Assembly (NCBI GenBank): GCA_964463705.1 | Contig: CAYXCH010000007.1 | Coordinates: 1 to 54,925, forward strand | Direction of reading: 5' to 3' | DNA from: an uncultured Pseudobdellovibrionaceae bacterium | Lineage (GTDB): Bacteria > Patescibacteriota > Minisyncoccia > Moranbacterales > GCA-2747515 | DNA: 54,925 nucleotides | In this document: in pieces, positions 15,546 to 53,419 of the stretch | Position numbering within the stretch: position 1 is the first letter of the stretch | How the letters are laid out: every line of letters starts with the position of its first letter | Translations under genes and position numbers: made by a program | Notes under the pieces: model-generated | Database searches by the model: none | What the model saw: the letters and a program-made list of their open reading frames with translations, nothing else | What the model was told of the DNA's origin: nothing

Positions 15546-16139
15546 ATGATTATTATCACACTCTCCGGAACGGATGGAAGCGGAAAAAGCACGCAGGCCC
15601 ATGCCGTGCGGGAATGGTTGACCGCCCGCGGAGAGCGCGTATGGATGTTCCACGCCGTTGAATTTTCCATTGCCAACCGCCTGTTACGTCAAACAGCGCC
15701 GAATCGATCCTCACGTAGCGTTACCCGTGCCGGCACTCTGCGAATCTTCTTACGGATCGTCGCTTTGCATATTGACTATATTCGCTTTGCATTTTTGCGA
15801 CGCCGACTGCGACGGCACGGATATACCGTAATACTGAGTGACCGATTTTTCTTTGATACGGTGGTAAACATTCGGTACTTACAACGCACAACGCGATGTG
15901 GCTACTTGGAGCGATGGGTTCCGCCCGTTGACTGTGCATTATATTTGGAAGTGGACGCCGAAACACTCCGCCACCGAGAACGTGTTCCCGAGCAAGGCGA
16001 GGAATACGCCCGAAAAAAATCCGCATTGTTTGCACAGCGACGTGACCGGTGGAATATGATTCTCATTGATGGCACGCAACCCATAGACACTGTCCGCAAT
16101 ACCATTATTCATACACTCACCCACCGCTGTTCACTATGA
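15546..16139 (+). CDS. Thymidylate-kinase-like NMP kinase
   Basis: LSGTDGSGKSTQA P-loop, ILSDRFFFD, DCALYLEV; substrate not certain. Confidence 0.75.
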   Translation: MIIITLSGTDGSGKSTQAHAVREWLTARGERVWMFHAVEFSIANRLLRQTAPNRSSRSVTRAGTLRIFLRIVALHIDYIRFAFLRRRLRRHGYTVILSDRFFFDTVVNIRYLQRTTRCGYLERWVPPVDCALYLEVDAETLRHRERVPEQGEEYARKKSALFAQRRDRWNMILIDGTQPIDTVRNTIIHTLTHRCSL

Positions 16140-26965: not shown

Positions 26966-26994
26966 ATTGTATGGCACACCGTGAACAACGTCAA
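26966..26994 (-). promoter_or_regulatory. Sigma70-type promoter for khpA
   Basis: TTGACG-N17-TACAAT on the minus strand. Confidence 0.75.
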
Positions 26995-28169
26995 TACGCC
27001 GGCGTCGGTTTAATAAGCGCATTACCACCAAAAATATTCCATAAATACTTCTTTAATGCAAAAGTCTTGGGGTGCGCCAGATAATCCTCTATACCACGTG
27101 CATGCACATTCCCGGTAATAAGAGATACTTTTTCACCATGATTACCACGCTGCATTGCATCCATTACATCTAAACTATTTTTTAACATTAACACTGTGCG
27201 CCCGTCAGCAACATGTGACAGAAAAAAGCGTTCTGGTATATTAAATTTATAATTTAATGAAACATCTGCAATAGCGCCATACTTGCTGTATAATGATATT
27301 GGAATTGCCAATGCTATACGCGCAAGACGATCTTCATGTTTCTGTGCATATAATGCAAGAAATGTTGACATAGTAAAAGCTGTAATTTCAAGCGCTTTAT
27401 ACGCATCTACACTATGCGCAATATCAACATAAAATGCCTTCTTCCCCTTCTCTTGTGCATAATCTGCAAGCGCATCAAAATATCCTCTTCCATATTCCAA
27501 AAGTGCAACATCGGCTGTACGAATTGCTTGAGAAAGTAAAATGTAATCACGATTATTATAGAAATGTTTCCAATCATGTGCTATGCCAATATTATGTAGT
27601 TGTGCATGATCAATGTCATGAAACTGATTTACAAAACTCCCTTCATTATATTGTGGTATGACATTTGACTCTTCCTCTCTTAGGCATATGAGCATCATAT
27701 TTCTCTCCCTATCCAACTTTTGATTGGGAGCTTTATTTAATAGTTTTGCACCGATTCCGCTCATGCCGAACACTACCGCAGCCACTACTGCATCCTCTTT
27801 ATAGAGAAATGACGGTGGGGCGATAAATCCGCTCTGCGGGGCTACGTCTTCCCTCTCCATCTCTGTAATGTCATGGAGAGAAGTATGTAACTCTTCTTCC
27901 GCGGCATCATAAAGCTCTTGTAAATGTGCATCTTTATGCAATGCATCTGCAACCTCTTCCACCTCAGAACTCTCCACAAGACGGGCAAGTGCCGCGTGTT
28001 GATCGTCCGTATTATCCAACTGTGCAATATCACTCATGGAGTGTCTGATACGTGATAGGGGCGCAGCATACCGCTCCGTCACTACCGACGAACCAAACAC
28101 GGTATCCGGCGACGCCGCCATTGCCGCCGCCCCTGCTGCCGCCGCTTTAAGAAAATCTCTACGATCCAT
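26991..28169 (-). CDS. Orphan with twin-arginine-like N-terminus and TraB/GumN/Tiki-like motifs
   Basis: MDRRDFLKAAAAGAAAMAA; IGIAH..DVALLE, GRTVLM, LITGNVHARGI; TAATG overlap with gltX. Confidence 0.6.
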   Translation of the reverse strand: MDRRDFLKAAAAGAAAMAASPDTVFGSSVVTERYAAPLSRIRHSMSDIAQLDNTDDQHAALARLVESSEVEEVADALHKDAHLQELYDAAEEELHTSLHDITEMEREDVAPQSGFIAPPSFLYKEDAVVAAVVFGMSGIGAKLLNKAPNQKLDRERNMMLICLREEESNVIPQYNEGSFVNQFHDIDHAQLHNIGIAHDWKHFYNNRDYILLSQAIRTADVALLEYGRGYFDALADYAQEKGKKAFYVDIAHSVDAYKALEITAFTMSTFLALYAQKHEDRLARIALAIPISLYSKYGAIADVSLNYKFNIPERFFLSHVADGRTVLMLKNSLDVMDAMQRGNHGEKVSLITGNVHARGIEDYLAHPKTFALKKYLWNIFGGNALIKPTPAY

Positions 28170-29711: not shown

Positions 29712-30320
29712 TCAATTAGTGATGATACGAAGGGCATCGTGATGATTATCACATATCGTTACATGCCGAATATAATAATCCCAGTCCGCTACCGTATTAT
29801 AATGCGCTGTTGCCGTCCGCATCCAATCAAAAAGACCGTCCCAATAGTCATGTTTGATACAAATGACCGGAACTGCCGAAGCAAGATCCGCGGAAAACAG
29901 TGCCAGCACTTCAAAAATTTCATCCATTGTTCCAAATGCTCCGGGGTAGAATACCAGCGCTTGACTATATTGTGCCATTATAATTCGTCGCAATGCCAAA
30001 TCACGCACCGTGATAATATGCGTCAAAATACCATCATCCGACGTCTCCAGATCTGAAAGTGCGGGAACGCGAACTCCAATAGATGATGTACCGGCCGCCA
30101 TAGCACCGGCATTTGCCGCCGACATCACACCGGGACCACCACCGGTTACAATTCCATATCCTCGCTTTCCCAATGCCTCCGCTAACGCATAGGCATCACG
30201 ATATGATGTGGACTGTGGCGTGAACCGATGTGAACCATACACTGTTACAAGCGGAGTCTTCATCTTCCGCAGCGCTCGTAAACCGTCACGATACGTGGAA
30301 AAACATAATTGCTGTGACAT
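29712..30320 (-). CDS. LOG-family nucleotide-monophosphate phosphoribohydrolase (divergent)
   Basis: VTVYGS.R, VTGGGPGVM.AAN.GA, RR, YPGAFGTMDEIFE (PGxxGTxxE). Confidence 0.9.
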   Translation of the reverse strand: MSQQLCFSTYRDGLRALRKMKTPLVTVYGSHRFTPQSTSYRDAYALAEALGKRGYGIVTGGGPGVMSAANAGAMAAGTSSIGVRVPALSDLETSDDGILTHIITVRDLALRRIIMAQYSQALVFYPGAFGTMDEIFEVLALFSADLASAVPVICIKHDYWDGLFDWMRTATAHYNTVADWDYYIRHVTICDNHHDALRIITN

Positions 30321-30345: not shown

Positions 30346-31269
30346 TTAGGATTTCTTTCCATAATTACTGTTAAAGAACGCTTGGAACAACGGACCAACA
30401 CCAACCACGCCGGACTGCGAAAATGTTGGTTCGTATTTCGATATGCGAAAATGCTCATAACGAAAATCATCCAAGGTCATCGGAGCATCCTCCGTCAAAT
30501 GCAATTGCGGCAATGGCGTCTTTGGATTATACAGACGTAACATCTTCCTTGCTAATTTACGATTCTCATCGTAAATATGAGCATCGGCAATATTATAGAA
30601 GAGTGTTCCCACTTGCAACCCCGTAATATGTGCGACAATATGAGTCAGAAGTGCATAAACAACAATGTCATAGGGAGCACCAAAGACGAGGTCCGCCGCC
30701 CGCTGAGTTAGATGACAGTAAAGCGTTCTATCGGCAACCATAAACTGAAAGATATGCGGACAAGGGGGCAATGACATTGTGTCCAATGCCCCCACATTCC
30801 ACGAACTGACCACTAACCGTTTTGAGTACGGATGTTCACGAATTTCATCCACAATTGTTTGCAATTGATCATAAACACGATCACCGCTCTCCCAATGTCG
30901 CCATTGATACATATGTCCAACATATCCATCGTCATCAGCAAAGTTATCCCAAATATGGATATTGTTCTTCAGCAGATAGTCAATCGTGTCGTCTCCACGC
31001 AAAATCCATAGCATCTCGTGTGCCGCAATACGAAAAGAAATTTTGCGTAAGGTGGTAAGAGGAAACTCACGAGAGAGATCAATCGACATTTGTACTCCGA
31101 AAAGCGAGTGTTGTCGTCCGCTGCGTGACGGTTTGAAAATACCCCGCTCTAAGCAACGACGTAATAATGCCGCATACTGTGCGTCATATCGCAACACATT
31201 TTCAGTATTCATTACCATTGTCATATAGTTGATTAATAGAAGCATCTTGCGCTCTATACATCCCGACAC
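30346..31269 (-). CDS. Thymidylate-synthase-fold protein with cytidylate-type active site (putative CMP/dCMP C5-methylase or hydroxymethylase)
   Basis: TS motifs HEMLW, IWD, QWR.W, VSSWN, LPPC, DAHIY; substitutions QRAAD, PYD (Asn177->Asp) and SKR; start may be 31224. Confidence 0.85.
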   Translation of the reverse strand: MSGCIERKMLLLINYMTMVMNTENVLRYDAQYAALLRRCLERGIFKPSRSGRQHSLFGVQMSIDLSREFPLTTLRKISFRIAAHEMLWILRGDDTIDYLLKNNIHIWDNFADDDGYVGHMYQWRHWESGDRVYDQLQTIVDEIREHPYSKRLVVSSWNVGALDTMSLPPCPHIFQFMVADRTLYCHLTQRAADLVFGAPYDIVVYALLTHIVAHITGLQVGTLFYNIADAHIYDENRKLARKMLRLYNPKTPLPQLHLTEDAPMTLDDFRYEHFRISKYEPTFSQSGVVGVGPLFQAFFNSNYGKKS

Positions 31270-32096
31270 GGAGTAAGTTTATACAATACAAACTCTACCT
31301 CACCGCCCTCATCGCCCACACTACGCTTCACTTCGCTCAGTTCCACATTAGCATCAGCACAAATCTCTCGCAGCTCCTTCTCATCACCAAAGTTGCCAAA
31401 TCCGAGATACCCGACACCATCATCAGAGAGATGTTGTGAAAGACCGACAATAAACCGACGAAGGGCACTATATCCGGGATCATACAATCCATATTGCAAT
31501 AAGTCCTTGTGCCGAAAATCCTCCGGCTTTTCAATCCACGGGTGATTCCAATAGATTACGTCATATTTTGTTCCGGGAGAAAGCGCATCATAAACATCAC
31601 TCTCTAATGCCATACACTGGGAACCACATTGCAATAACTCAATGTTATGACGACAGTTCCGTACAGCAGCATCAGATATATCTGTAAGTGTGACAGGGGC
31701 AACGCGTCCGGTTTTATATAAGGACAGACCTGTAATTCCGGAACCCGCACCAATCTCCAATAATGACGGAGTCACTCCGTTATGACGCTTCTTATAGTCA
31801 TCCAATTCCTCAAAGAGTGTCGGCGTAAACAATTCATGTCCATGAAAAATTTCCGGTGAAAATACATCGGGAAGCACATCAATTGTTTTCTCTGTGCCGT
31901 GAAGTGGAACAGAATGCCTTCCACGGTCACGATTCTCATCCAGAATCTCTTCGGAAATATCCGCCTGAGCCAAAACCCACTGTTGGTGTGTATCTGCCAC
32001 TTCATCACAATGGCCGGATTCACCATTGTCGCCTGTCGTCGCCGTCACAGGTGCATGTGAAGCATATGGTGTAGGAATATTTTTATCGTTCATCAT
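31254..32096 (-). CDS. Class I SAM-dependent methyltransferase
   Basis: LEIGAGSGI, TDIS, SDVY, DVIYWNHPW, YDPGY. Confidence 0.9.
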   Translation of the reverse strand: MMNDKNIPTPYASHAPVTATTGDNGESGHCDEVADTHQQWVLAQADISEEILDENRDRGRHSVPLHGTEKTIDVLPDVFSPEIFHGHELFTPTLFEELDDYKKRHNGVTPSLLEIGAGSGITGLSLYKTGRVAPVTLTDISDAAVRNCRHNIELLQCGSQCMALESDVYDALSPGTKYDVIYWNHPWIEKPEDFRHKDLLQYGLYDPGYSALRRFIVGLSQHLSDDGVGYLGFGNFGDEKELREICADANVELSEVKRSVGDEGGEVEFVLYKLTPCRDV

Positions 32097-32282
32097 ATTA
32101 ACGCTTATTAATTATCACAAACCTCCTATACATTCAGCGAACCATTTTTGTAAAAACATAACAAATATTTATATATGTCAACTACAAATATTTCCTTCTG
32201 TTAAGCCAAAAATAGAACTATCCCTCTCTTATTCATAAATGTTGTACACCAGGCACTTCTTGGTTTATACTGAAATATATAA

Positions 32283-33050
32283 ATGAATCTTTCCATTATG
32301 AATACCCAACATCTTCTCCTAAAACTTCAGCATCTCGGCATGACCGAACGTGAAGCGATTATTTATCTCTCTCTTTTAAAACTGGGACAAGCAACAGCAT
32401 ATAAAGTCGGAAAAATTGCCGGTATGCGTGTTTCTTCCACATATGTTATTTTGGAAAAACTTCATGCGGATGGATTTGTCTTAAAAACACCGGGAACAAA
32501 AAAAATAACATTCTCTGCAAGAAAGCCACAGGAACTCCTCTCTGATTTCCGCGCTAAAGTAAATGAATTTGAGGATATCATTCCGCTACTTCAACGTGAA
32601 GCGCAGAATAATCCCATATCGGATACACTTATCTTTAGTGGATATGATGGAATTGCAGAGGCGCTGAATTATCGCTATGATACTACTTGCCGCACATCTA
32701 CCGCCTGCCTTTATTCAAGTATTCCAAGCAATGATCCCAAGCTGCTTTCTCTCTATACGACATGGGATCGCAAAGCTATTACGGATGGGGCGATATTTAC
32801 AATCATCCTTCCAAAGACTCGCGATATTGTAAAATTCACAGAAATTGTTCCGGAAAAATATGAAAATTCTCGCTACATTGATCCAAAATACTACTTTATT
32901 GAAAGTGCGATTGAAATTATCGGTACCGCGTTCGTTCGGATTATTTCCCATGAAAAAAAGACCGCCACTATTATTGACGATGTCCACACGGCACAAACAA
33001 TGCGTCAAATTTTTACACTAATTTATGATAATATTTCACAACCTTGGTAA
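32283..33050 (+). CDS. TrmB-family transcriptional regulator
   Basis: LQHLGMTEREAIIYLSLLKLG..TA..VG..AGM..SSTY..LEKL wHTH; FSARKPQELL; C-terminal effector-type domain. Confidence 0.9.
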   Translation: MNLSIMNTQHLLLKLQHLGMTEREAIIYLSLLKLGQATAYKVGKIAGMRVSSTYVILEKLHADGFVLKTPGTKKITFSARKPQELLSDFRAKVNEFEDIIPLLQREAQNNPISDTLIFSGYDGIAEALNYRYDTTCRTSTACLYSSIPSNDPKLLSLYTTWDRKAITDGAIFTIILPKTRDIVKFTEIVPEKYENSRYIDPKYYFIESAIEIIGTAFVRIISHEKKTATIIDDVHTAQTMRQIFTLIYDNISQPW

Positions 33051-33824
33051 CTATTGTCGCCATAATAGGCGATAAATGCTTTGTAACACTCTATTGTAAA
33101 TTATAATTACCGGAAATACTACCACACTCCGTAGCATTTTGCCCAGGCGGTGAGGCTGGTGGATGGTGCGGTATATCCACTCCACGCCCCACCGACGCAT
33201 CCACCGCGGAGCACGAGGAACGGCACCGGTAAGAAAATCCACGGCACCGCCAACGCCCACCGCAACACCGGTTGCGCCCTGTGCTCGCAACGCCTCCAAA
33301 AAATACTCCTGTTGCGGTGCGCCGAAATTTGCAATATATATCGCCGGTGCCTTGTGAATGGAGGATGAAGAGTATGCCTCTATTCCTTCACACCGAACAT
33401 CTTCACCCGTTACCTGCAATTGCGGGTACCGCTCTCGCACTACCCGTTGAACCGTATGCCATTGTGACAATCCGTCCGCACGACAAAAAAAGTGTACCGA
33501 CCATCCTTCTTTCTCCGCTGCGTCCAATATATCAAAGAAAAGATCCGCGCCGGCATAGCGTTGCACGGGACGATGCATTAGCCGTGCCATTAACGCTACC
33601 CCCACCCCGTCGGCAATACACATATCCGCTTGTTTTAGTACGGCACGAAATTTCTCATTACTCCGCGCCAAAAGCAAAAATTCCGGATTGACCGTCGCAA
33701 TACGCAAAAATTCTCCTGTTTCTCGCATTGCCTCATCAATACGACATCTCGCCACATCCGGTGAGCACAAATCCGGCTGATAAAATACCGATGATAATTT
33801 TCCGAAACACCGACTCATATGCAA
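33051..33824 (-). CDS. WecG/TagA/CpsF-family glycosyltransferase (GT26)
   Basis: TVNPEF, ADGVG, GADL, FGAPQQE, GVGGAVDF, RAPRWM..GVEWIYR. Confidence 0.93.
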   Translation of the reverse strand: MHMSRCFGKLSSVFYQPDLCSPDVARCRIDEAMRETGEFLRIATVNPEFLLLARSNEKFRAVLKQADMCIADGVGVALMARLMHRPVQRYAGADLFFDILDAAEKEGWSVHFFCRADGLSQWHTVQRVVRERYPQLQVTGEDVRCEGIEAYSSSSIHKAPAIYIANFGAPQQEYFLEALRAQGATGVAVGVGGAVDFLTGAVPRAPRWMRRWGVEWIYRTIHQPHRLGKMLRSVVVFPVIIIYNRVLQSIYRLLWRQ

Positions 33825-35027
33825 TTATGATGATGCTCTATGATCTGCATCAACACTGCACGTCTCCATCACAGAATGTACCGTATGTTTCCATGCAAAT
33901 CGTTTACTCTGCGCAATTGCCCGTGAACGCAACGCCTCCCGCACCGCTTTATCGCAAACGACACGACGCAGCGCCTGATAAAGAGACGTCACATCGGACG
34001 GATCACAATACTCCACCGCGTCTCCACCAACTTCGGGAATGGAGGAAACGGTTCCCGCCACCACCGGTGTCCCAACACTGAGCGCTTCCAGCACCGGTAA
34101 GCCAAATCCTTCATATAGTGATGGATATACAAACACCATTGCTCCGGCATATAACGCCGGAAGATGTTCTTGCGGTACAAATCCTACCACTCGCACATGA
34201 TCCGATAAATCCATTTCTTGCACCAATCGCTCCACGTCGGTAATCAATGGAGCAAGATGCGGCATCAATGCACCGGAAATAACCAGTGGCGGCACCACGC
34301 ACGGTTTCTCTGTCCGTAACCGTGCATACGCACGCAACAGCGTTGTCACATTTTTGCGCACATCCAATCCTCCACCAAAATACAGATAATCGCCGTCTTG
34401 CACACCGTACAAATCCAAAATACGATGACGCTCCTCCGATGATGGTGGCGAGGATTTAAACATTGGATCACAATCAATATGCTGTACGGTAATCCGTGTA
34501 GACGGTACACCCAACAGACGCACGACATCATCCCGCGTATGATTGGAAATGGCGATCAGTGCATCTGCACGAACAATGGCACGCTCCGTCAAATACTGGT
34601 AGAATCGCTTGCGTACATTATTGAGATACTGTGGAAATATATGCGGCACAAGATCATGCACAACCATAACATGGTGCACGCCCTGTATGATGGTCGGACA
34701 CTGGTACAACGATAAGAACACATCACAGCCGTCCGCTCGCACCCGACGCGGCAATAATACACGCTCCCATAAAATTTTCCGTACCAAGTCATCTCGCGTA
34801 TACAACGGAGGAAGGAACGCTCGCACCGTACAGCGTTCCCGCACCGATGACGGCAGCGATTGCACCATGGCACGGATAGACTCTTCCTCCGCATAAAATA
34901 CAATCTGTATATCACCATACTTCCCCCGCTGCATGTCCTCCAAGAGTGTGCGCACAAAATGATACGTCACTTCCCCGATACCACTCCCTCGCTTCCGCAG
35001 AAACGATACATTAATACCAATCTTCAT
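33825..35027 (-). CDS. GT4 glycosyltransferase
   Basis: VHDLVP, IAISNHT, RKNV, PSLYEGFGLPVLEALSVGTPV. Confidence 0.93.
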   Translation of the reverse strand: MKIGINVSFLRKRGSGIGEVTYHFVRTLLEDMQRGKYGDIQIVFYAEEESIRAMVQSLPSSVRERCTVRAFLPPLYTRDDLVRKILWERVLLPRRVRADGCDVFLSLYQCPTIIQGVHHVMVVHDLVPHIFPQYLNNVRKRFYQYLTERAIVRADALIAISNHTRDDVVRLLGVPSTRITVQHIDCDPMFKSSPPSSEERHRILDLYGVQDGDYLYFGGGLDVRKNVTTLLRAYARLRTEKPCVVPPLVISGALMPHLAPLITDVERLVQEMDLSDHVRVVGFVPQEHLPALYAGAMVFVYPSLYEGFGLPVLEALSVGTPVVAGTVSSIPEVGGDAVEYCDPSDVTSLYQALRRVVCDKAVREALRSRAIAQSKRFAWKHTVHSVMETCSVDADHRASS

Positions 35028-35092
35028 AAAACACTCCTTCTTGTTACCCTTCTTTCATCCTACCATACCTACGTAGTGTGAAACCGCCGACA

Positions 35093-35314
35093 CTACCGAA
35101 CCTCATCTTCTCCATCAAGTAAAGCATATATTCCGCTCCGTTCATTGACACGAGCGTTCCGCACAAGATCATCCCGCCTAAGAAGTTGTGCATACTTTTG
35201 ATGTGAAGGTTTTTCTGACGCACCGATTACTTTTTCCGCGACAATAACAGACACTTTTGCGGGATCATTTTTTATACTATTATCAACGTTTATTTCGCTT
35301 TTTTTATGTATCAT
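35093..35314 (-). CDS. Possible 73-aa small protein
   Basis: Open frame MIHKKSEINVD...EDEVR in a 335-bp intergenic gap; no recognisable motif. Confidence 0.25.
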   Translation of the reverse strand: MIHKKSEINVDNSIKNDPAKVSVIVAEKVIGASEKPSHQKYAQLLRRDDLVRNARVNERSGIYALLDGEDEVR

Positions 35315-35362
35315 GTATAATGCATAAAAGTGCAATAATAAAAATCCTATAAATGTTTTGGT

Positions 35363-36676
35363 ATGACACAGGAGACACGTCACATCACAAAGGATAAAAC
35401 AATCGTAGTCGTTGGACTGGGATATGTCGGGCTGCCATTGGCGTTGCTGGCACGAGAAGCCGGCTATGATGTTATCGGGCTTGATGTGCGAAAAGAATGG
35501 GTGGATATGATCAACCAAGGAACCTGTCCTATCAATGATGATGAGAAGGTTACAGACAAATTTGAGCGCTTCCGCTTCCCCGCAACGATAGATCCTGCGG
35601 AAATCGCCAAAGGAGATATCATCTTGATTGCCGTACCAACACCGGTTGATGAGAATCAAAACCCCGTTTATGACTATGTCGTCGATGCATCAACAACCGT
35701 TGCGGAAAACATGAAAGCGGGAGCACTTGTTGTCCTGGAATCCACCGTCAATCCCGGTACCTGTGAAACCATCGTTCGTCCGATTTTTGAGCGTGCCGGA
35801 TTTACCATCGGAACAGACGTGGACATCGCCCACTGTCCGGAACGAATTGATCCCGGAAAGTCATCATTTAGCGCCGGGTATCATATTGGAAATACGGCAC
35901 GGGTGGTCGGTGCGTTTACTCCGGACGGAACAACGCGAGCGGCGGAATTTTATCGATCTATCATTGATGCGGAAATTCGGGAAATGAAGTCCATTCGCGA
36001 GGCGGAGGCGGTGAAAATTTTGGAAAACTCATTCCGAGATATCAATATTGCATTTATCAATGAAATTGCACAGAGCTTTGACCATCTCGGGATTGACGTA
36101 TTGGATGTTATTGAGGGCGCAAAAACAAAGCCGTATGCATTTATGGCACACTACCCCAGTTGCGGCGTTGGCGGTCACTGCATTCCCGTTGATCCGTATT
36201 ACTTGATTGAAAGCGCACAACGCAGCGGGTTTGATCACCAGTTTATGCGACAAGCGCGCAAGGTCAATAACTTTATGCCGGAGTATTCCGTAGAACGCAT
36301 GCAGGATGCTCTCAATGACATTAAACGCCCGATGAACGGTGAGACAATCGGACTCCTGGGACTGGCATATAAAGCCAATGTTGATGATATGCGTGAATCT
36401 CCTTCGTTCAAAATCATTAAACACCTACGCAAGCACGGAGCAAATGTCATCACCTATGACCCACACATTCTTCACAAATCGGACAGACAGACACTGGAAG
36501 ATGTACTGAACGATGTTGATCACGTCTTCATCGCCACAAACCACGATGAATTTGTGGATATGGATCTCTCATTACTAAAAAAGCACGATATCAAGATTGT
36601 ATTGGATGGAAAGAATTGTATGGATAAAGACGCCATTGAGGCCATGGGCATCATTTATCGCGGAATTGGTCGGTAG
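35363..36676 (+). CDS. UDP-N-acetylhexosamine 6-dehydrogenase (WecC/TviB family)
   Basis: VVGLGYVGLP, LESTVNPG, PERIDPG, KILENSFRDINIA, GVGGHCIPVDP, AYKANVDDMRESP. Confidence 0.92.
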   Translation: MTQETRHITKDKTIVVVGLGYVGLPLALLAREAGYDVIGLDVRKEWVDMINQGTCPINDDEKVTDKFERFRFPATIDPAEIAKGDIILIAVPTPVDENQNPVYDYVVDASTTVAENMKAGALVVLESTVNPGTCETIVRPIFERAGFTIGTDVDIAHCPERIDPGKSSFSAGYHIGNTARVVGAFTPDGTTRAAEFYRSIIDAEIREMKSIREAEAVKILENSFRDINIAFINEIAQSFDHLGIDVLDVIEGAKTKPYAFMAHYPSCGVGGHCIPVDPYYLIESAQRSGFDHQFMRQARKVNNFMPEYSVERMQDALNDIKRPMNGETIGLLGLAYKANVDDMRESPSFKIIKHLRKHGANVITYDPHILHKSDRQTLEDVLNDVDHVFIATNHDEFVDMDLSLLKKHDIKIVLDGKNCMDKDAIEAMGIIYRGIGR

Positions 36677-36689
36677 AAAAACCATCATT

Positions 36690-36722
36690 AAAAAGACTGC
36701 TCATACTGTGCAGTCTTTTTTT
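36690..36722 (+). terminator. Intrinsic terminator
   Basis: aaaagactgc-N9-gcagtc followed by a T-run. Confidence 0.8.
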
Positions 36723-36778
36723 GCCTAATTCCGTTTTTCCATTTAAAATAGAACTATAATTCTTTTGGATGATTCTTT

Positions 36779-37705
36779 ATGAAGCTGATTGTAAACATGC
36801 CGGGATACAATGAGGAGAAGCACATCGCAGAGACAATTCGGCGTGTACCGCGAACGATTGATGGAATTGATGAAGTATTGGTACAGGTAATTGACGATGG
36901 GTCGGTAGACCGCACCGTAGAAGAAGCACGAGCAGGCGGTGCGGATATTATTATTTCTCATGATGGTAATCGTGGACTCGGTGTAATGTTTCGCACGATG
37001 CGACAAAGCGCATTGGAACACGGAGCGGACATTATGGTAAATATTGATGCGGACGGACAGTTTGATCCACAGGATATTAAAAAACTTATCCGTCCAATTT
37101 TAGAGAAAACGGCAGATATTGTCATTGCGGACCGCTTCTCCAAGAGTACGGCAAAGAATATCCCCTTCCTCAAAGATAAGCTGAATCGTCTGGGTGCATG
37201 GCTTGTCGCCAAAGCCACCGGTGTTCCGGTTGTAGATCTTACCTGTGGATTTCGAGCACATAGCCGAGAGGCGATGTTGCGATTGAGTGATCCGGCGGGA
37301 TTTACCTATACACAAGAAACAATCATTGACGCGATCGGTAAAAATCTCAAACTTCAATGGGTTCCGGTTGTTGTACACTATCATGCTCAACGCAAGAGCC
37401 GTGTTGTCAAGACAATTTGGAATTATGTCAATAACAGTGCGCGAATTATCATTCGTGCGTTTCGCGATATCCAACCAATGAAGTTTTTTGCCATTCCGGG
37501 TATTTTGTTTATGATCGCATCCGCTGTGGGATTTTTCATTCTTCGTGGCGCCTATCCACTGACAACGGTGGCTTTCTTTCTCGTTGGTATGCAGTTCTTA
37601 ACATTCGGATTGATCGCCGATATGATGCGAGGAACACGAATGCAAAATGAGGAAGTTCTCTATCGCCTGCGCCGTAACGAATGGCGTGAAAATCACAAAC
37701 ACTAA
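36779..37705 (+). CDS. GT2 glycosyltransferase (DPM1-like, polyprenol-phosphate glycosyltransferase type)
   Basis: PGYNEE, IDDGSVD, DADGQ, DLTCGFRA, two C-terminal TMs. Confidence 0.88.
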   Translation: MKLIVNMPGYNEEKHIAETIRRVPRTIDGIDEVLVQVIDDGSVDRTVEEARAGGADIIISHDGNRGLGVMFRTMRQSALEHGADIMVNIDADGQFDPQDIKKLIRPILEKTADIVIADRFSKSTAKNIPFLKDKLNRLGAWLVAKATGVPVVDLTCGFRAHSREAMLRLSDPAGFTYTQETIIDAIGKNLKLQWVPVVVHYHAQRKSRVVKTIWNYVNNSARIIIRAFRDIQPMKFFAIPGILFMIASAVGFFILRGAYPLTTVAFFLVGMQFLTFGLIADMMRGTRMQNEEVLYRLRRNEWRENHKH

Positions 37706-37709
37706 CCCT

Positions 37710-38813
37710 ATGCCTACATCTGATACTCCGCGCATTCTCTTTCTCTCTCGCGCCTACCCGCCGGTTACCGGTGGTATTGAGAATCAAAATTATGAAATCT
37801 CCCGCGCTCTCGCCCGGCGTGTTCCATGCACGGTTATCGCAAACAAGCATGGAAAACGCGCGCTCCCTCTCTTTCTTCCCTATGCGTTAATCGTAACTCT
37901 GTGGAACATGCGTACGCATGATGTGTTATTGCTGGGCGATGGCGTATTGGGAATTATCGGCGGGTTTGTAAAAATCTTCTACGGCAACCGCAAGAAAGTC
38001 TTATGTATTGTTCACGGACTTGATTTGACATTCAACAACAATATCTATCAAAATTTCTGGGTCAAACAATTTATTCCCGATGCCGATCGCCTTATTGCCG
38101 TCGGTAATCAAACAATTAAAGAAGGTGTGACTCGCGGAATTCCGGAAGAAAAATTTGTTTTTGTTCCCAATGGTGTTGATGTGAAAAAATTTGCCCTCGG
38201 AACACCGGATCGCAAAGCACTGTCTGTACTACTGAAAAAAGATCTTAGCGATGATACTCGTGTTCTTTTTACCGGCGGACGGTTGGTAAAACGCAAGGGT
38301 GTGGCATGGTTTATCCGGACCATTCTACCCACTCTACCGGACAATATTATTTATGCTGTTGCCGGAGACGGCCCCGATCGCACAAATATTGAGGCGGCGA
38401 TTCGGGAAAATGGTATGCAAGACCGTGTTGTGCTATTAGGATATGTCAGTGATGACGATCGCCGGACACTCCTCCACAGTTGCGACCTCTTTATTCAGCC
38501 AAATATTCCGGTAGAGGGTGATATGGAAGGATTCGGGTTGGTGGTGCTGGAAGCCGGTAGCAGCGGCATTGTTGTCGTAGCTTCACGATTGGAAGGATTG
38601 AAGGATGCGATTCATGATGGTAAAAACGGAATTCTTGTTCCTCCGGAAGATGCTGATGCGTGGAAGGAAACCGTTATAACACTTCTGAGTGATGACGATA
38701 AACGGACGGCGATGGGACGTGCGGCACACGAATATATTACAAAACACTTTACATGGGACGCCATCGCCGCTCGCTATGTAGAAGTGATTGAACAAACACC
38801 GGCACGACGGTAA
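37710..38813 (+). CDS. GT4 glycosyltransferase
   Basis: YPPVTGGIE, GRLVKRKG, EGFGLVVLEA; start moved to MPTSDTPRILF. Confidence 0.92.
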   Translation: MPTSDTPRILFLSRAYPPVTGGIENQNYEISRALARRVPCTVIANKHGKRALPLFLPYALIVTLWNMRTHDVLLLGDGVLGIIGGFVKIFYGNRKKVLCIVHGLDLTFNNNIYQNFWVKQFIPDADRLIAVGNQTIKEGVTRGIPEEKFVFVPNGVDVKKFALGTPDRKALSVLLKKDLSDDTRVLFTGGRLVKRKGVAWFIRTILPTLPDNIIYAVAGDGPDRTNIEAAIRENGMQDRVVLLGYVSDDDRRTLLHSCDLFIQPNIPVEGDMEGFGLVVLEAGSSGIVVVASRLEGLKDAIHDGKNGILVPPEDADAWKETVITLLSDDDKRTAMGRAAHEYITKHFTWDAIAARYVEVIEQTPARR

Positions 38814-38841
38814 AAACCTTTATTACAACACATTTTTCGTA

Positions 38842-38871
38842 TTGACGCACGTTGTGCTTTAGCGGTACAAT
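38842..38871 (+). promoter_or_regulatory. Sigma70-type promoter
   Basis: TTGACG-N18-TACAAT. Confidence 0.7.
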
Positions 38872-38885
38872 ACACTATGGCGCTT

Positions 38886-38996
38886 TGTGAAAAGTGCCAT
38901 CCCGTTGGTGCTTCGGCACCATCTATGAATGGGCCCGTTCGTTCACAGTAAAAGAGATAAAGACCTCATCGATGTATGTGGATTTCCATGTACATC
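38886..38996 (+). ncRNA. Candidate structured 5' leader RNA
   Basis: TGTGAA/TTCACA closing stem, GGTGC-TTCG-GCACC tetraloop hairpin, GAATGGG/CCCGTTC and an 11-bp hairpin at 38971-38996. Confidence 0.4.
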
Positions 38997-39011
38997 ATGA
39001 GTCATGAAGCT

Positions 39012-39734
39012 ATGACCGAAGAATATCGCGACGATATTGAGGAGATGGAAGAGGATGATGATCGTACCTTCGGCGAGTGGCTGCAAGACAATTTGCGCGT
39101 GATTATCAGCGTGATTATTGTGTTGCTGCTGGCGCTGGGCATCTACTCCTACTCCAAGCGTTCGCAGGAGGCGCGCATGGTTGCCGACACCTCCGGCGCA
39201 AACACCGCTACGGAAACATCTGCACAAGATGATGGTGGCGTGATGGCGCAAATTGGTGATGCCGTAACGGGTGGAGCAAAGAAAGCGGCGGATACCGCTG
39301 CTGCTGCCGCCGGTGCGGCTAAAGATGCGGCAACAGGTGCTGTAGAAACTGCGAAGAACAGCATGAAGAAGGATGATGCACCGCAAGTTATGGCACAAGA
39401 TGACGCACGCAACACAACGGCTGCACGCGACACCTTAACGGGTGATGCATACACCTTGGTGGCGCGAGCCGGGGATGGTAAAACACATCTGGCGCGACGC
39501 GCACTATCCGGATATCTGGCACAACACCCGGTAGACGGATTGACCGCAGCACATAAGGTCTACATTGAAGACTACCTGCAAAAGGCAGTTGGAGGACCGA
39601 CGATGCTACGGATTGGACAAGAGGTACGCTTCTCAACGGACTTGATTAAACAAGCCATTGAGCGAGCGCAACGCCTCAATGACATGCAGCTGCGCAACTT
39701 GCAGAAGTATGCGGCCGCCGCTTCTCTCTCCTAG
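39012..39734 (+). CDS. Membrane-anchored hypothetical protein
   Basis: Acidic N-terminus, one TM, Ala/Thr-rich linker, C-terminal globular domain; flanked by a promoter and a terminator. Confidence 0.85.
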   Translation: MTEEYRDDIEEMEEDDDRTFGEWLQDNLRVIISVIIVLLLALGIYSYSKRSQEARMVADTSGANTATETSAQDDGGVMAQIGDAVTGGAKKAADTAAAAAGAAKDAATGAVETAKNSMKKDDAPQVMAQDDARNTTAARDTLTGDAYTLVARAGDGKTHLARRALSGYLAQHPVDGLTAAHKVYIEDYLQKAVGGPTMLRIGQEVRFSTDLIKQAIERAQRLNDMQLRNLQKYAAAASLS

Positions 39735-39786
39735 ACGTCTGTGACGAACACTTACAGGGAAAACGCAACAGCTTCATGTCCTTTAC

Positions 39787-39816
39787 AAAAAACACCGCCA
39801 GCGTGCGGTGTTTTTT
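39787..39816. terminator. Bidirectional intrinsic terminator
   Basis: aaaaaacaccgc-cagcgt-gcggtgtttttt. Confidence 0.9.
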
Positions 39817-39818
39817 AT

Positions 39819-40307
39819 TTATGGACGATTGGCGGGAACAACACTAATGCGTGTACCGAGTGTTGCACCGTACGAGCGTATTGCGCCGTGCGGCAATTCA
39901 AGAACATACCGTGCCGGCAACCGTGGTCGCAAGATTGTGGAATCAAACGGAACTCCACTGCGAATATCTACAATTTCCCACCGTGCGTTAATCCATACGA
40001 TATCCAATGGAATAGATGTTTTATTCATCCAAAACGCATGACGGGCGCTGGACGGAAATACGAATAACATTCCGCATTGTTTACATAGTTGTGAATGATG
40101 TTGTAGTCCGCGACGACGGGTTTCCTCTCTTGCCGCCACTGTCGCTACAACAACGGCATCGTTAATACTTATACGCACCGTATCGCCATCGGCATACTCC
40201 TCAATACCATCTATATCATCTATCGCCCCCGGCAGCGGACTTAACAGACCGATACAGAGTACTACCGTGAAGAAGATTTTACCGTAGGTTGTGTATGTTC
40301 CACCCAT
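39819..40307 (-). CDS. DUF192-family protein
   Basis: RRRGL, GMLFVF, FWMNKTSIPLDIVWI, YVLELP. Confidence 0.92.
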   Translation of the reverse strand: MGGTYTTYGKIFFTVVLCIGLLSPLPGAIDDIDGIEEYADGDTVRISINDAVVVATVAAREETRRRGLQHHSQLCKQCGMLFVFPSSARHAFWMNKTSIPLDIVWINARWEIVDIRSGVPFDSTILRPRLPARYVLELPHGAIRSYGATLGTRISVVPANRP

Positions 40308-41293
40308 AAAAGTAAACCGATCATGATGATTGCAACAGTGACAACCACTGTTGCTTTAACGGTAACTGTTGCATGAACCGAGCCAAACGCCACTGCCCCA
40401 ATCAGTCCCGCATACAGTAACGCAATATGTCGTGAAGACCATCCGCGATCCGCTAAACGATAATGTAAATGTCGTCGATCCGGCGCAAACGGTGAGACAC
40501 CGGCACGAAGACGGGAAAAGATTACCCATACCGCATCCACTAACGGAACAATCATTACCAATAGCGTTGTCGCGATTTTCGCACCGGCGATAATCGCCAA
40601 TGACGCCACCACCACTCCCCAGAAAAATGCTCCCGTTGTCCCCGCAATGATGCGAGATGGCGCCCAGTTCCATACAAGAAATCCGCCGGTTGCACCCATG
40701 AGTGCCGCGGCGGCAATCGCCACCGGCGGCTGATGAACATGAGGCAACAGTGCGGTGGCAAAGATTGTTCCTCCCGCTACCAGCGCCACCATTCCGCCCA
40801 GTCCGTCCACACCATCCAACCAATTCATCACATTCATAATCCCGACAACCCACAGAATCGTAAGAACAAAACTTGTCAATGAAAACACGGTATCGGGTGA
40901 AAATACAATCATTGCATCGCGAAATGGATGAGATACCGCCGTAATCCGAATCTCACCGATAAACAATAACATTGCAATCCATACATGTGCAGCTAACTGC
41001 GTCCGCCAGGTTACGACACGATAATCATCCCACAATCCGACAAGCACGACTCCGCCCAATGCAATCAACAATATCACCCACCGAGTGTCCGGAACAAAAT
41101 TCGGATGCACCAAAAGAGCAATAACAAATGCCGCCACCATCGCCACACCGCCCAGTCGCACCGGATGAGATACCGGACGACGTGCCTCCACTCGGCGAGA
41201 AGGCAAATATCGCGCCACACCGACCAGTGCGGCGCATCCAATCACCGCTATGCCCCACGCCGTTAAAAATGCTGTTACATACATCATGAGCAT
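40262..41293 (-). CDS. WecA/TagO-type undecaprenyl-phosphate GlcNAc-1-P transferase (MraY superfamily)
   Basis: RLGGVA, GLWDD, NVMNWLDGVDGL, FLVWN, PLVD, DRRHLHYRL. Confidence 0.9.
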   Translation of the reverse strand: MLMMYVTAFLTAWGIAVIGCAALVGVARYLPSRRVEARRPVSHPVRLGGVAMVAAFVIALLVHPNFVPDTRWVILLIALGGVVLVGLWDDYRVVTWRTQLAAHVWIAMLLFIGEIRITAVSHPFRDAMIVFSPDTVFSLTSFVLTILWVVGIMNVMNWLDGVDGLGGMVALVAGGTIFATALLPHVHQPPVAIAAAALMGATGGFLVWNWAPSRIIAGTTGAFFWGVVVASLAIIAGAKIATTLLVMIVPLVDAVWVIFSRLRAGVSPFAPDRRHLHYRLADRGWSSRHIALLYAGLIGAVAFGSVHATVTVKATVVVTVAIIMIGLLLWVEHTQPTVKSSSR

Positions 41294-50976: not shown

Positions 50977-52005
50977 ATGCAAACAACTATTCTCATCACC
51001 GGCGGTGCCGGCTACATCGGATCTCATACCGCGGTTGCACTGCAAGAACACGGCTACACTCCCCTCATCTTGGATAATTTCAGCAATACGCACCGTGATG
51101 TTCCGGATGGAATTCGCGCCATTACCGGAACACCCGTCCGCTGTATTGAAGGAGATTGTCGCGATACAAAACTTCTGGAACATCTCTTTGCTCATGAGCG
51201 GATTGGCGGCGTCATTCACTTTGCGGCGTTAAAAGCCGTGGGTGAATCTGTTCATCGCCCACTAGACTACTATGAGAACAATTTAATGTCGCTCCTTGCG
51301 CTCTTGCGTGTTGCTACCGCACATGCCACAGCACACAATACCACCCTGCCCGTCATTTTTTCCTCCAGTGCCACCGTCTATGGCGATGCGGACACCATGC
51401 CCGTTACCGAGGATACGCCGCGCCGACCCGCCACCAACCCCTATGGAAATACCAAAGCGATTGCGGAAGATATTTTGCGCGACACTGTCACTGCTGATGC
51501 GCCTCTCTGTGCGATTGCACTTCGCTACTTCAACCCCATCGGTGCTCATCCCTCCGGTCATATCGGCGAACGCCCCACCGGTACACCGGCAAATCTCGTC
51601 CCCTACCTCACGCAAGCCGCCGCCGGGCTTCGTTCCACACTTACCATCCATGGTAACGATTACGACACTCCGGACGGCACCGGCATCCGTGATTACATTC
51701 ACGTCATGGACCTGGCAACGGCCCACGTCGCCGCCCTCCGCCATGCCGAGCGGACGACCGCACCGCAGTATGATGTCTTCAATATCGGCACCGGACGCGG
51801 AACCAGTGTTAACGAACTCATCACCACTTTCCATAATGTCACCGGCGTCTCTGTTCCCCACACCGTTGGACCGCGCCGCCCCGGTGATGTCGCCACTTGC
51901 TACGCCGATGTCACCAAGGCTCATCGCATTCTCCAATGGCGCGCTCAATACACGATTGCCGATGCTCTCCGTGATGCCTGGAACTTCCAACAGCGCCAAC
52001 GATAA
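50977..52005 (+). CDS. galE: UDP-glucose 4-epimerase
   Basis: TGGAGYIGSH, HFAALKAVGES, FSSSATVYG, YGNTK, LRYFNPIGAH, RDYIHVMDLA. Confidence 0.97.
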   Translation: MQTTILITGGAGYIGSHTAVALQEHGYTPLILDNFSNTHRDVPDGIRAITGTPVRCIEGDCRDTKLLEHLFAHERIGGVIHFAALKAVGESVHRPLDYYENNLMSLLALLRVATAHATAHNTTLPVIFSSSATVYGDADTMPVTEDTPRRPATNPYGNTKAIAEDILRDTVTADAPLCAIALRYFNPIGAHPSGHIGERPTGTPANLVPYLTQAAAGLRSTLTIHGNDYDTPDGTGIRDYIHVMDLATAHVAALRHAERTTAPQYDVFNIGTGRGTSVNELITTFHNVTGVSVPHTVGPRRPGDVATCYADVTKAHRILQWRAQYTIADALRDAWNFQQRQR

Positions 52006-52123
52006 ACTCCCTCCTCTACACTGTGCTGAATTAATCACACCGAGAAATTATTCCACTATCGTAACTATACTCGGTTATTTATTAATCGCTCCGGTACCAC
52101 CATCATGCATCATGACTATTTAT

Positions 52124-53416: not shown

Positions 53417-53419
53417 AGA

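Follow-up and report, generated by a model that had tools for sequence, protein, structure and literature searches.

A ThyA-like protein with a predicted CMP-recognition triad is coupled to a LOG-family glycosidase and a methyltransferase in Patescibacteria

The window analysed here is a 54,925-nucleotide stretch of DNA from an uncultured Pseudobdellovibrionaceae bacterium (Patescibacteriota in the GTDB lineage; assembly GCA_964463705.1, contig CAYXCH010000007.1, positions 1 to 54,925), and all statements on the genome context of the source organism refer to this 55-kb window. An open reading frame (ORF) at positions 30346–31269 encodes a homolog of thymidylate synthase (TS), referred to below as the ThyA-like protein. 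Its gene lies in a minus-strand operon downstream of an S-adenosylmethionine (SAM)-dependent methyltransferase gene and upstream of a gene for a LOG-family N-glycosidase. The ThyA-like enzyme has probably, by a modest balance of the sequence evidence, been retargeted from dUMP to CMP, and a free methylated base would be released after C5 one-carbon transfer, glycosidic cleavage and a second methylation. Judged by its gene context, the protein is almost certainly not a source of dTMP.

The sequence-only reading of this stretch had proposed that three substitutions relative to Escherichia coli ThyA switch the enzyme to CMP. A BLASTP alignment with E. coli ThyA (41% identity, E 5e-69; the reference is identical to PDB 1aob_A) is gap-free over query residues 147–248, so the ungapped manual alignment behind that proposal was correct. 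Asn177 is replaced by Asp201, whose GAC codon lies exactly at the position claimed, and the same alignment pairs Ser167 with Ala191 and Arg126 with Lys150 (Table 1). The replacement of His147, by Pro171, was likewise recovered. The three former positions are those of Asp186, Ala176 and Lys133′ in the CMP hydroxymethylase MilA, and BcmA shares all three residues (PMC5175136). They govern the preference of MilA for CMP or dCMP and for cytosine or uracil: with A176S, activity on CMP falls and that on dCMP rises, and the A176S/K133R double mutation abolishes CMP activity and reverses the preference to dCMP (PMC5175136). The role proposed for Asp as the cytosine determinant is borne out by work on T4 dCMP hydroxymethylase (PMC6400193), and that of the Ser-to-Ala and Arg-to-Lys changes in ribo-CMP preference by the MilA paper (PMC5175136). 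The residue equivalence with MilA was obtained by transitive alignment via E. coli TS, as in the MilA paper itself (PMC5175136). The proposal that the substitutions point to CMP is supported by this match, to which the gene partnerships described below add context.

The scaffold that carries these substitutions is that of ThyA. The Pfam model PF00303 (Thymidylat_synt) is covered almost end to end (E 1.8e-76), and the closest solved structures in a PDB sequence search are all true ThyA proteins, with best E values of 1e-62 to 1e-59 and a range reaching 1e-43. The AlphaFold model (predicted local distance difference test score, pLDDT, 75; predicted TM-score, pTM, 0.80) matches bacterial ThyA structures with Foldseek TM-scores of up to 0.89. 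MilA (5b6d, 5jnh) appears neither among the best 60 PDB sequence matches nor among the best 50 fold matches of the ThyA-like protein; a T4 gp42 query reaches MilA in the PDB at E 0.004. As far as sequence comparison can tell, the CMP-recognition triad is an independent, convergent acquisition on a true ThyA scaffold. As had been anticipated, automated annotation takes such proteins for thymidylate synthase: the TIGR03284 score is 235 bits against a cut-off of 108, and the annotation of the relatives by JGI is ‘thymidylate synthase’. The protein falls below the cut-offs of four close NCBIfam ThyA equivalogs (NF002497, NF002499, NF002496 and NF002495).

The catalytic machinery is retained. The catalytic Cys and the equivalents of Glu58, His207 (His231) and Tyr209 (Tyr233) are kept, in agreement with the sequence-only reading, as are those of Arg21, Tyr94, Arg127, Arg166 and Asp169, and all of these residues are invariant in the clade of close relatives described below. 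Because the phosphate-binding residues Arg21, Arg127 and Arg166 and the catalytic residues Cys146, Glu58, Tyr94, His207 and Tyr209 are preserved, the enzyme should be active and should act on a mononucleotide. Relative to E. coli ThyA, two residues are deleted after Tyr94, and Phe176 is replaced by Tyr, also in the clade. A Trp83-to-Phe replacement was considered as a further clade-specific change tied to the altered C-terminus and was dropped, Phe occurring in 34 of 270 relatives.

An ordinary ThyA chain ends at a PVAI/V tail, and its terminal carboxylate closes the active site. This C-terminus was expected to be replaced by an extension in the ThyA-like protein. The expectation holds in part: a 16-residue extension is present, but a TS-like tail (GVVGV; 30397–30411, minus strand), which aligns with E. 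coli residues 260–264, still precedes it. The GPLFxxFF motif of the extension is conserved in the clade and, in fusion proteins, continues into a linker toward the LOG domain; the extension is modelled with low confidence (pLDDT <40). The true start of the protein is uncertain because homologues begin at about residue 27, ∼26 residues inside the longest ORF. In the public gene call, translation begins at ATG 31245 (299 residues), 8 nt past the methyltransferase stop codon, and the sequence makes this codon or a later one (ATG 31224, 31218 or 31212) the likely start.

The ThyA-like protein belongs to a very small group. A search of 5.8 billion proteins yielded six close relatives at 51–55% identity, followed by ordinary ThyA proteins at ≤47% identity and ≤238 bits; the nearest relatives outside the clade are canonical ThyA proteins with 45–47% identity. 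When 1.84 billion cluster representatives were searched with a profile, 20,287 family members were returned, and just four of them score with the clade: P0005 and P0006 and, at a greater distance, P0121 and P0132, the last being a fragment. The match runs through the C-terminal extension in P0005, P0006 and P0132 alone and ends, in canonical proteins, where the extension starts; P0121 matches beyond the canonical end and lacks the GPLF motif. A scan of GTDB species genomes added one true clade member (L011). The clade then comprises eight proteins: the window protein, five full-length relatives, one partial relative and the L011 protein from a Saccharibacteria metagenome-assembled genome (MAG). 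As sampled by these sequences, it is small and confined to the candidate phyla radiation (CPR)/Patescibacteria.

Residues at positions 126, 147, 167 and 177 were read from an alignment of the 270 nearest family members. The canonical combination Arg/His/Ser/Asn is found in 247 of them and Asn177 in 258, whereas the Lys/Pro/Ala/Asp quartet is found in exactly the eight clade members and is invariant there. The quartet, on this sequence distribution, is not a product of chance, since it is limited to the clade. Pro147 probably belongs to the cytosine switch because it accompanies Asp177 in 14 of the 17 sequences that bear Asp177. In a neighbour-joining tree, the clade and P0121 form a single branch beside canonical bacterial ThyA, the other Asp177 proteins are dispersed among canonical ThyA, and T4 gp42 (22% identity) is a distant outgroup. 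A phage origin of the gene was rejected, no clade member being found among viral contigs; the best 80 viral matches all carry the canonical residues.

Two further kinds of TS homologue were observed outside the clade. Six proteins of ThyA length with a normal ThyA tail have the Asn177-to-Asp replacement and keep Ser167 (P0125, P0163, P0181 and P0215 with Arg/Pro/Ser/Asp; P0076 and P0179 with Arg/His/Ser/Asp); these are candidate natural dCMP methylases, for which an annotation as thymidylate synthase would likewise be expected. The GTDB scan also returned an uncultured Clostridiaceae MAG (L012:4334–6873), in which a canonical thyA-folA pair adjoins, back to back, another TS-like gene. This second gene (301 residues) is divergent; it keeps Arg126, Ser167 and Asn177, has Val147/Tyr148 and an altered C-terminus, and may be a dUMP-modifying paralogue.

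The gene partners of the ThyA-like protein provide the second line of evidence. In the window, the methyltransferase, ThyA-like and LOG genes follow one another in this order, and a gene for a TrmB-family helix-turn-helix (HTH) regulator diverges from them (Table 1). Every ORF of the fetched neighbourhoods was scored with purpose-built hidden Markov models. The three genes occur together with unrelated flanks at the window locus and in L001, L004, L008, L021 and L024, and overlaps or gaps between module genes are just 4–25 nt. Three distinct relatives (P0003, P0004 and P0005) are fusions of ∼505 residues in which the ThyA-like protein is joined to LOG; L024 holds a fourth, and P0132 is a fragment of another. 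A methyltransferase gene precedes each ThyA-like::LOG fusion with a 4-nt overlap or gap. L021, from the same organism as L009 and L026, copies the window layout (TrmB, methyltransferase, ThyA-like, LOG), and in L007 the TrmB gene is followed by a ThyA-like gene and a SLOG::methyltransferase fusion. The pair is kept in the sister lineage L013. In the sister lineage represented by P0121 (Lys/Pro/Ser/Asp, with His207 replaced by Gln), an orthologous methyltransferase gene adjoins (hhalign E 1e-44) and LOG is absent. Because the flanking genes differ in every case, the linkage is a product of selection and not of inherited synteny.

Table 1. Features of the ThyA-like gene and its operon in the window
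Feature	Position	Strand	Remark
ThyA-fold enzyme, predicted CMP C5 one-carbon transferase	30346..31269	-	longest ORF 307 aa, GTG start
Asp201 (E. coli Asn177)	GAC, 30667..30669	-	uracil-to-cytosine specificity switch (PMC5175136, PMC6400193)
Ala191 (Ser167)	GCG, 30697..30699	-	matching MilA Ala176 gives room for ribose 2'/3'-hydroxyls (PMC5175136)
Lys150 (Arg126')	AAA, 30820..30822	-	counterpart of MilA Lys133' (PMC5175136)
PPCPH motif: catalytic Cys170 (Cys146), Pro171 (His147), His172 (Ala148)	30754..30768	-	
Clade-specific C-terminal extension, 16 residues, GPLFQAFFNSNYGKKS (GPLFQAFF...)	30349..30396	-	directly after the TS-like tail
LOG-family (TIGR00730) nucleotide 5'-monophosphate N-glycosidase, 202 aa	29712..30320	-	begins 25 nt downstream of the ThyA-like stop
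Class I SAM methyltransferase, HemK/RsmC/MTS type, 280 aa	31254..32096	-	stop codon 8 nt before ATG 31245
TrmB-family HTH regulator	32283..33050	+	divergent from the operon
Divergent intergenic region, 186 nt, AT-rich	32097..32282	.	presumed promoter and operator region

In other genomes, the ThyA-like enzyme is replaced by an RsmB/F-type C5 methyltransferase (variant B, as opposed to variant A with the ThyA-like protein and LOG). L022/L023, L028 and L030 have a methyltransferase gene followed by a SLOG-cluster-4::RsmB/F fusion, and L029 and L032 contain partial copies of this arrangement. A nucleoside 2-deoxyribosyltransferase (NDT)-like::RsmB/F fusion adjoins the methyltransferase in L016 and L037. 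The module is at its most compact in L033:3018–5414, where a single stop-to-stop frame of 799 residues joins methyltransferase, NDT-like and RsmB/F domains without interruption. The RsmB/F parts clearly belong to their family (170 and 115 bits), and neither of the catalytic cysteines has been lost. The NDT-like domain is weakly recognisable: its best PDB match is 4jen, ‘CMP N-glycosidase’ (E 0.008 among 177,635 sequences), followed by DNPH1-type N-hydrolases, and an hhalign comparison with a 4jen fragment (E 2e-4) aligns the catalytic Glu. A kinship of this domain with CMP N-glycosidase is suggestive only. In total, three activities recur in five different fusion architectures and with exchanged enzyme families, namely a Cys-dependent C5 one-carbon transfer to an N1-substituted cytosine, an N-glycosidase and this methyltransferase. 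The methyltransferases of variants A and B are intermixed in a tree, which suggests a common function of the two variants.

The swap bears on both substrate and product. With an RsmB/F C5 methyltransferase in place of the ThyA-like enzyme, cytosine C5 is favoured as the target and methyl as the product. The chemistry of RsmB/F yields methyl only, so the product of variant B would be 5-methylcytosine and, if both variants do the same job, the ThyA-like enzyme would be a CMP methylase. The translational coupling or fusion to LOG and the exchange with a cytosine-C5 methyltransferase are understandable only if the substrate is a cytosine nucleotide with a fate other than DNA.

In the proposed pathway, Cys170 would attack CMP at C6, and C5 would receive the one-carbon unit from 5,10-methylene-tetrahydrofolate, CMP and the C5-modified nucleotide being the predicted substrate and product. 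The LOG-type phosphoribohydrolase would cut the N-glycosidic bond to give a free C5-modified cytosine and ribose 5-phosphate, a substrate suggested by the fusions. The HemK/RsmC-like methyltransferase would place a second methyl group on a predicted target atom, likely N4 or the freed N1, and this step could precede base release. C5 modification would have to come before base release because both types of C5 enzyme need the glycosidic bond and the TS fold needs the 5′-phosphate. The end product would be a free methylated pyrimidine base with candidate roles as an antimetabolite, a signal or a precursor. For the first step, 5-methyl-CMP is the somewhat favoured product and 5-hydroxymethyl-CMP the less probable one, although it retains a considerable share of the expectation. 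The methyl product is favoured because Cys−3 (Leu167, just upstream of the PPCPH motif) and the tail are TS-like and the hydroxymethylase signature is missing. This signature, proposed for T4-type enzymes, consists of Asp/Glu at Cys−3, Ser/Thr at Tyr−2 and no C-terminal tail (PMC6400193). Leu occupies Cys−3 in the window protein and in five further members of the clade, L011 has Val there, Tyr−2 is His, Pro, Ala or Arg in the clade and never Ser or Thr, and the tail is present.

The LOG gene product passes the TIGR00730 cut-off (105.6 bits against 96.35) and has the family motifs of the GGGxGxM and PGGxGTxxE types, TGGGPGVM at 30123–30146 and PGAFGTMDE at 29919–29945, the latter with one Gly-to-Ala change. 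Among solved structures, it is nearest to TT1465 and type-II LOG phosphoribohydrolases. Known LOG members release cytokinins or unmodified bases. Unlike other LOG/PpnN proteins, the window LOG is coupled, and in relatives fused, to an enzyme that modifies C5 of a pyrimidine, and this partnership implies that its substrate is a modified CMP.

The methyltransferase contains motif I (LEIGAGSG, 31737–31760) and a motif IV (YWNHPW, 31536–31553) that is a variant of (N/D)PP(Y/F/W). Across its family, motif IV reads N-H-P-W in the window, N-[MTY]-P-[FW] in relatives and the canonical NPPF in L007. All curated-family scores are far under their cut-offs, with weak matches to RsmD (PF03602), MTS and HemK. 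PDB profile matches include MJ0882, the gentamicin N-methyltransferase GenN, PrmA, HemK, RlmG, RsmC, PRMTs and METTL5, and the structural model (pLDDT 87.6) is nearest to the carbamoyl N-methyltransferase Asc-Orf2, GenN and HemK2/N6AMT1. The neighbours in sequence and structure are mostly N-methyltransferases, two of which act on small molecules. Because the nearest neighbours methylate nitrogen, the enzyme most likely targets a nitrogen, either N4 or, once the base is freed, N1; O2, as in bacimethrin, is a less probable target.

The logic of the module has precedents built from other parts. In mildiomycin biosynthesis (MilA/MilB, Streptomyces rimofaciens), a TS-fold enzyme with Lys/Ala/Asp likewise modifies CMP, and the base is then cleaved from the modified CMP (PMC5175136, PMC4081090). 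MilB is of the nucleoside 2-deoxyribosyltransferase type, whereas the window glycosidase is of the LOG/SLOG type; the window also adds an integral methyltransferase, its product is possibly methylated and not hydroxymethylated, and its hosts are CPR bacteria and not actinomycetes. Bacimethrin biosynthesis (BcmA/BcmB/BcmC; Clostridium botulinum, Paenibacillus) follows the same logic with a TS-like CMP modifier, an N-glycosidase and a base-acting SAM methyltransferase. In contrast to the window, BcmB is of the nucleoside 2-deoxyribosyltransferase type and the bcm operon includes thiaminase I and a pyrimidine kinase; of the bacimethrin operon parts, the window has only a TS-like enzyme and a methyltransferase. 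The window methyltransferase is N-methyltransferase-like, whereas bacimethrin requires O2-methylation. The module is best read as the MilA/MilB and bacimethrin logic assembled from different parts.

A comparison with T4 gp42 and with engineered TS delimits the change further. T4 gp42 shares the TS fold, Asp at the Asn177 position and the conserved Cys, Glu, His and Tyr, but has Ser169 and Arg123 (deoxyribose-specific), Asp at Cys−3, Ser at Tyr−2 and no tail, whereas the window protein has Leu at Cys−3, no Ser at Tyr−2 and a tail plus extension. Engineered Asn-to-Asp mutants of TS (L. casei N229D, E. coli N177D) are dCMP methylases, and PDB 1njc is the L. casei N229D enzyme crystallised with dCMP. 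As in the clade, a genuine ThyA scaffold is sent to a cytosine nucleotide, with hydride transfer kept in the mutants. The clade differs from these mutants in having, in addition, the Ser167-to-Ala, Arg126-to-Lys, His147-to-Pro and Phe176-to-Tyr changes, the deletion after Tyr94, the extension and the glycosidase pathway.

Several alternative explanations were weighed against the retargeting to CMP with base release. A rather unlikely but substantial one is that the ThyA-like protein is a CMP 5-hydroxymethylase like MilA and BcmA in a bacimethrin-like route, in which CMP would be converted into 5-hydroxymethyl-CMP, 5-hydroxymethylcytosine and a methylated product (a thiamin-pyrimidine antimetabolite or similar). 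The combination of TS-like enzyme, N-glycosidase and methyltransferase parallels the bacimethrin operon, the Lys/Ala/Asp triad is that of MilA and BcmA (PMC5175136), and the chain no longer ends at the TS tail, which in TS seals the site for hydride transfer (PMC6400193). The two-residue deletion after Tyr94 and the His147-to-Pro change also fit this explanation. It is disfavoured by the missing signature, with TS-like Leu at Cys−3 and a variable Tyr−2, and by the sister modules, whose SAM-dependent C5 methyltransferase can deliver methyl only. Moreover, neither a ThiD-type kinase nor thiaminase I is encoded in the 55-kb window, the methyltransferase resembles N- and not O-methyltransferases, and the glycosidase is a LOG and not of the BcmB/MilB type. 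It is very unlikely that the protein methylates or hydroxymethylates dCMP to provide DNA with a modified deoxynucleotide, as in T4/Xp12-type phages or host DNA modification. Asp177 is common to T4 gp42, ThyA-like proteins with Asp177 and Ser167 occur among bacterial ThyA, and L011 lies near a Tmk-like kinase able to phosphorylate a modified nucleotide; however, Ala167 and Lys126 favour ribose, and a fused N-glycosidase would destroy the nucleotide. The housekeeping content of this cellular chromosome, the viral contigs without a clade member and the lack of any DNA-modification or defence signature also count against DNA as the destination.

That the module acts on RNA is highly improbable. 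In such a scheme, the methyltransferase would have a housekeeping role like that of RsmC, RsmD or HemK, and the RsmB/F partners would be rRNA m5C methyltransferases, with the ThyA-like and LOG proteins loosely associated or acting on polynucleotides. The weak RsmD, MTS and HemK matches, the known RNA methyltransferases of the RsmB/F family and the solitary occurrence of the methyltransferase in some genomes, once ∼3 kb from prfA, agree with it. The methyltransferase scores are nevertheless all far below the family cut-offs, the retained arginines bind a 5′-monophosphate in the TS fold, and LOG and NDT-type domains are mononucleotide N-glycosidases; the five fusion architectures tie the three activities together, and dedicated regulators are unusual for housekeeping rRNA methyltransferases. 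An ordinary, divergent thymidylate synthase that makes dTMP beside unrelated genes has the least chance of being correct. Such an enzyme would explain the full fold with all catalytic residues and the passed TIGR03284 cut-off, and no second thyA, ThyX motif or FolA-like sequence was found within the 55-kb window. The near-universal Asn177 among the nearest homologues, the dCMP-bound Asp mutant in 1njc, the invariant quartet and the four failed equivalog cut-offs argue against it, and the LOG fusions and conserved operon speak against a coincidence of neighbours.

Some observations weigh against the preferred retargeting to CMP methylation with base release. The triad is exactly that of two hydroxymethylases, and the altered C-terminus could let water into the active site and permit hydroxymethylation. 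A methylase reaction would yield dihydrofolate, yet no folA is seen in the 55-kb window. The outlying relatives P0121 and P0132, the latter a LOG fusion, keep Ser167, and P0132 has Thr126; therefore, the Lys/Ala pair is not obligatory for the partnership. The L011 clade member has neither LOG nor the methyltransferase nearby. The methyltransferase family, with ∼50 members, is larger than the ThyA-like clade, and the methyltransferase stands alone in L017, L019, L025, L034 and L035, with the JGI label release-factor methyltransferase; where alone, the enzyme may act on a wider range of substrates or on another one.

A wider interpretation is offered tentatively and is doubtful as a whole: an undescribed modular CPR/Patescibacteria pathway would lead to a free doubly methylated cytosine (e.g. 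N4,5- or 1,5-dimethylcytosine), with the C5 step performed by a ThyA-derived folate-dependent CMP methylase or a mononucleotide-acting RsmB/F enzyme and the glycosidase step by a LOG, SLOG-cluster-4 or BcmB-like domain, and the product would serve as a diffusible signal or antimetabolite of epibionts. If this is true, the ThyA-derived folate-dependent CMP methylase and the mononucleotide-acting RsmB/F SAM methyltransferase would each be the first of their kind. No paper linking a TS homologue with LOG or describing this module in Patescibacteria was found in a search without subscription journals. The module of C5 one-carbon transfer, base release and second methylation points to a methylated pyrimidine metabolite in a group of bacteria with an almost unexplored small-molecule biology, and the pathway, with three small soluble proteins and commercial substrates, is directly testable. 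The case is also a trap for annotation, since the protein clears a curated TS model and yet almost certainly does not produce dTMP; metabolic reconstructions of such reduced genomes would wrongly assign thymidylate synthesis. The independent appearance of the same three-residue CMP solution on a ThyA scaffold would constitute a natural experiment on the evolution of TS specificity.

The operon is probably under the control of the divergent TrmB-type regulator. The TrmB-type divergent layout also occurs in L007, L008, L009/L021/L026 and L016, and an inverted-repeat search of the regulator–operon intergenic regions gave AT-rich repeats only, with no operator common to the loci. In L022 (3907–4890) and L023 (47–1030), TrmB is replaced by a divergent tandem AsnC/Lrp-type HTH protein; therefore, the module has been put under different regulators. 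L016:761–10150 (JGI Ga0606628_0000001, a 1.05-Mb contig) contains three successive small operons, each with a divergent TrmB-type regulator. They encode a 526-residue radical SAM enzyme related to that of L011, the NDT-like::RsmB/F protein with the methyltransferase, and a Methyltransf_12-like protein with an HMGL-like enzyme, and the region has the look of a genomic island of regulated genes for modifying small molecules. In L011:5983–9275 (MAG ‘uncultured Candidatus Saccharibacteria bacterium’, CAYOFM010000020.1), the gene for the ThyA-like protein with the full Lys/Pro/Ala/Asp quartet is followed by one for a 567-residue B12-binding radical SAM enzyme, with a Tmk-like kinase gene on the other strand. 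There, the modified nucleotide may undergo alkylation and phosphorylation instead of base release.

The remaining gene content of the window is that of a cellular chromosome, with lepA, tsaD, mraZ/mraW, mreBC, ligA and genes for penicillin-binding proteins, a release factor, ribosomal proteins and several aminoacyl-tRNA synthetases. In a search with LepA, the closest sequences were from Patescibacteria, those with a name being Moranbacteria. A known defence system was rejected as an explanation for the module, PADLOC having returned generic domain similarity only (PsyrA SLOG domain, mad2 methyltransferase). Envelope glycan genes occupy 33051–41293 and 50977–54919 and encode WecG/TagA-type, GT4 and GT2 glycosyltransferases, a UDP-glucose 6-dehydrogenase, an MraY-like transferase, an epimerase and DIE2/ALG10-like and DUF2079 membrane proteins. 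Attachment of the base to a sugar through the UDP-glucose dehydrogenase and glycosyltransferase genes at 33–39 kb, as in blasticidin and mildiomycin, was considered and set aside, these genes being absent beside the module at other loci. The genes at 35–39 kb are on the plus strand, and the GC skew, otherwise strongly negative, changes sign there. Directly downstream of gltX, 26991–28169 (minus strand) encodes a protein of 392 residues, in which a twin-arginine signal peptide is the only feature recognised. A weak thymidylate-kinase-like ORF (15546–16139, plus strand; Pfam 30 bits) heads a plus-strand group with a Wzx-like flippase and a metallophosphoesterase, and the Tmk-like gene near the ThyA-like gene in L011 resembles this ORF.

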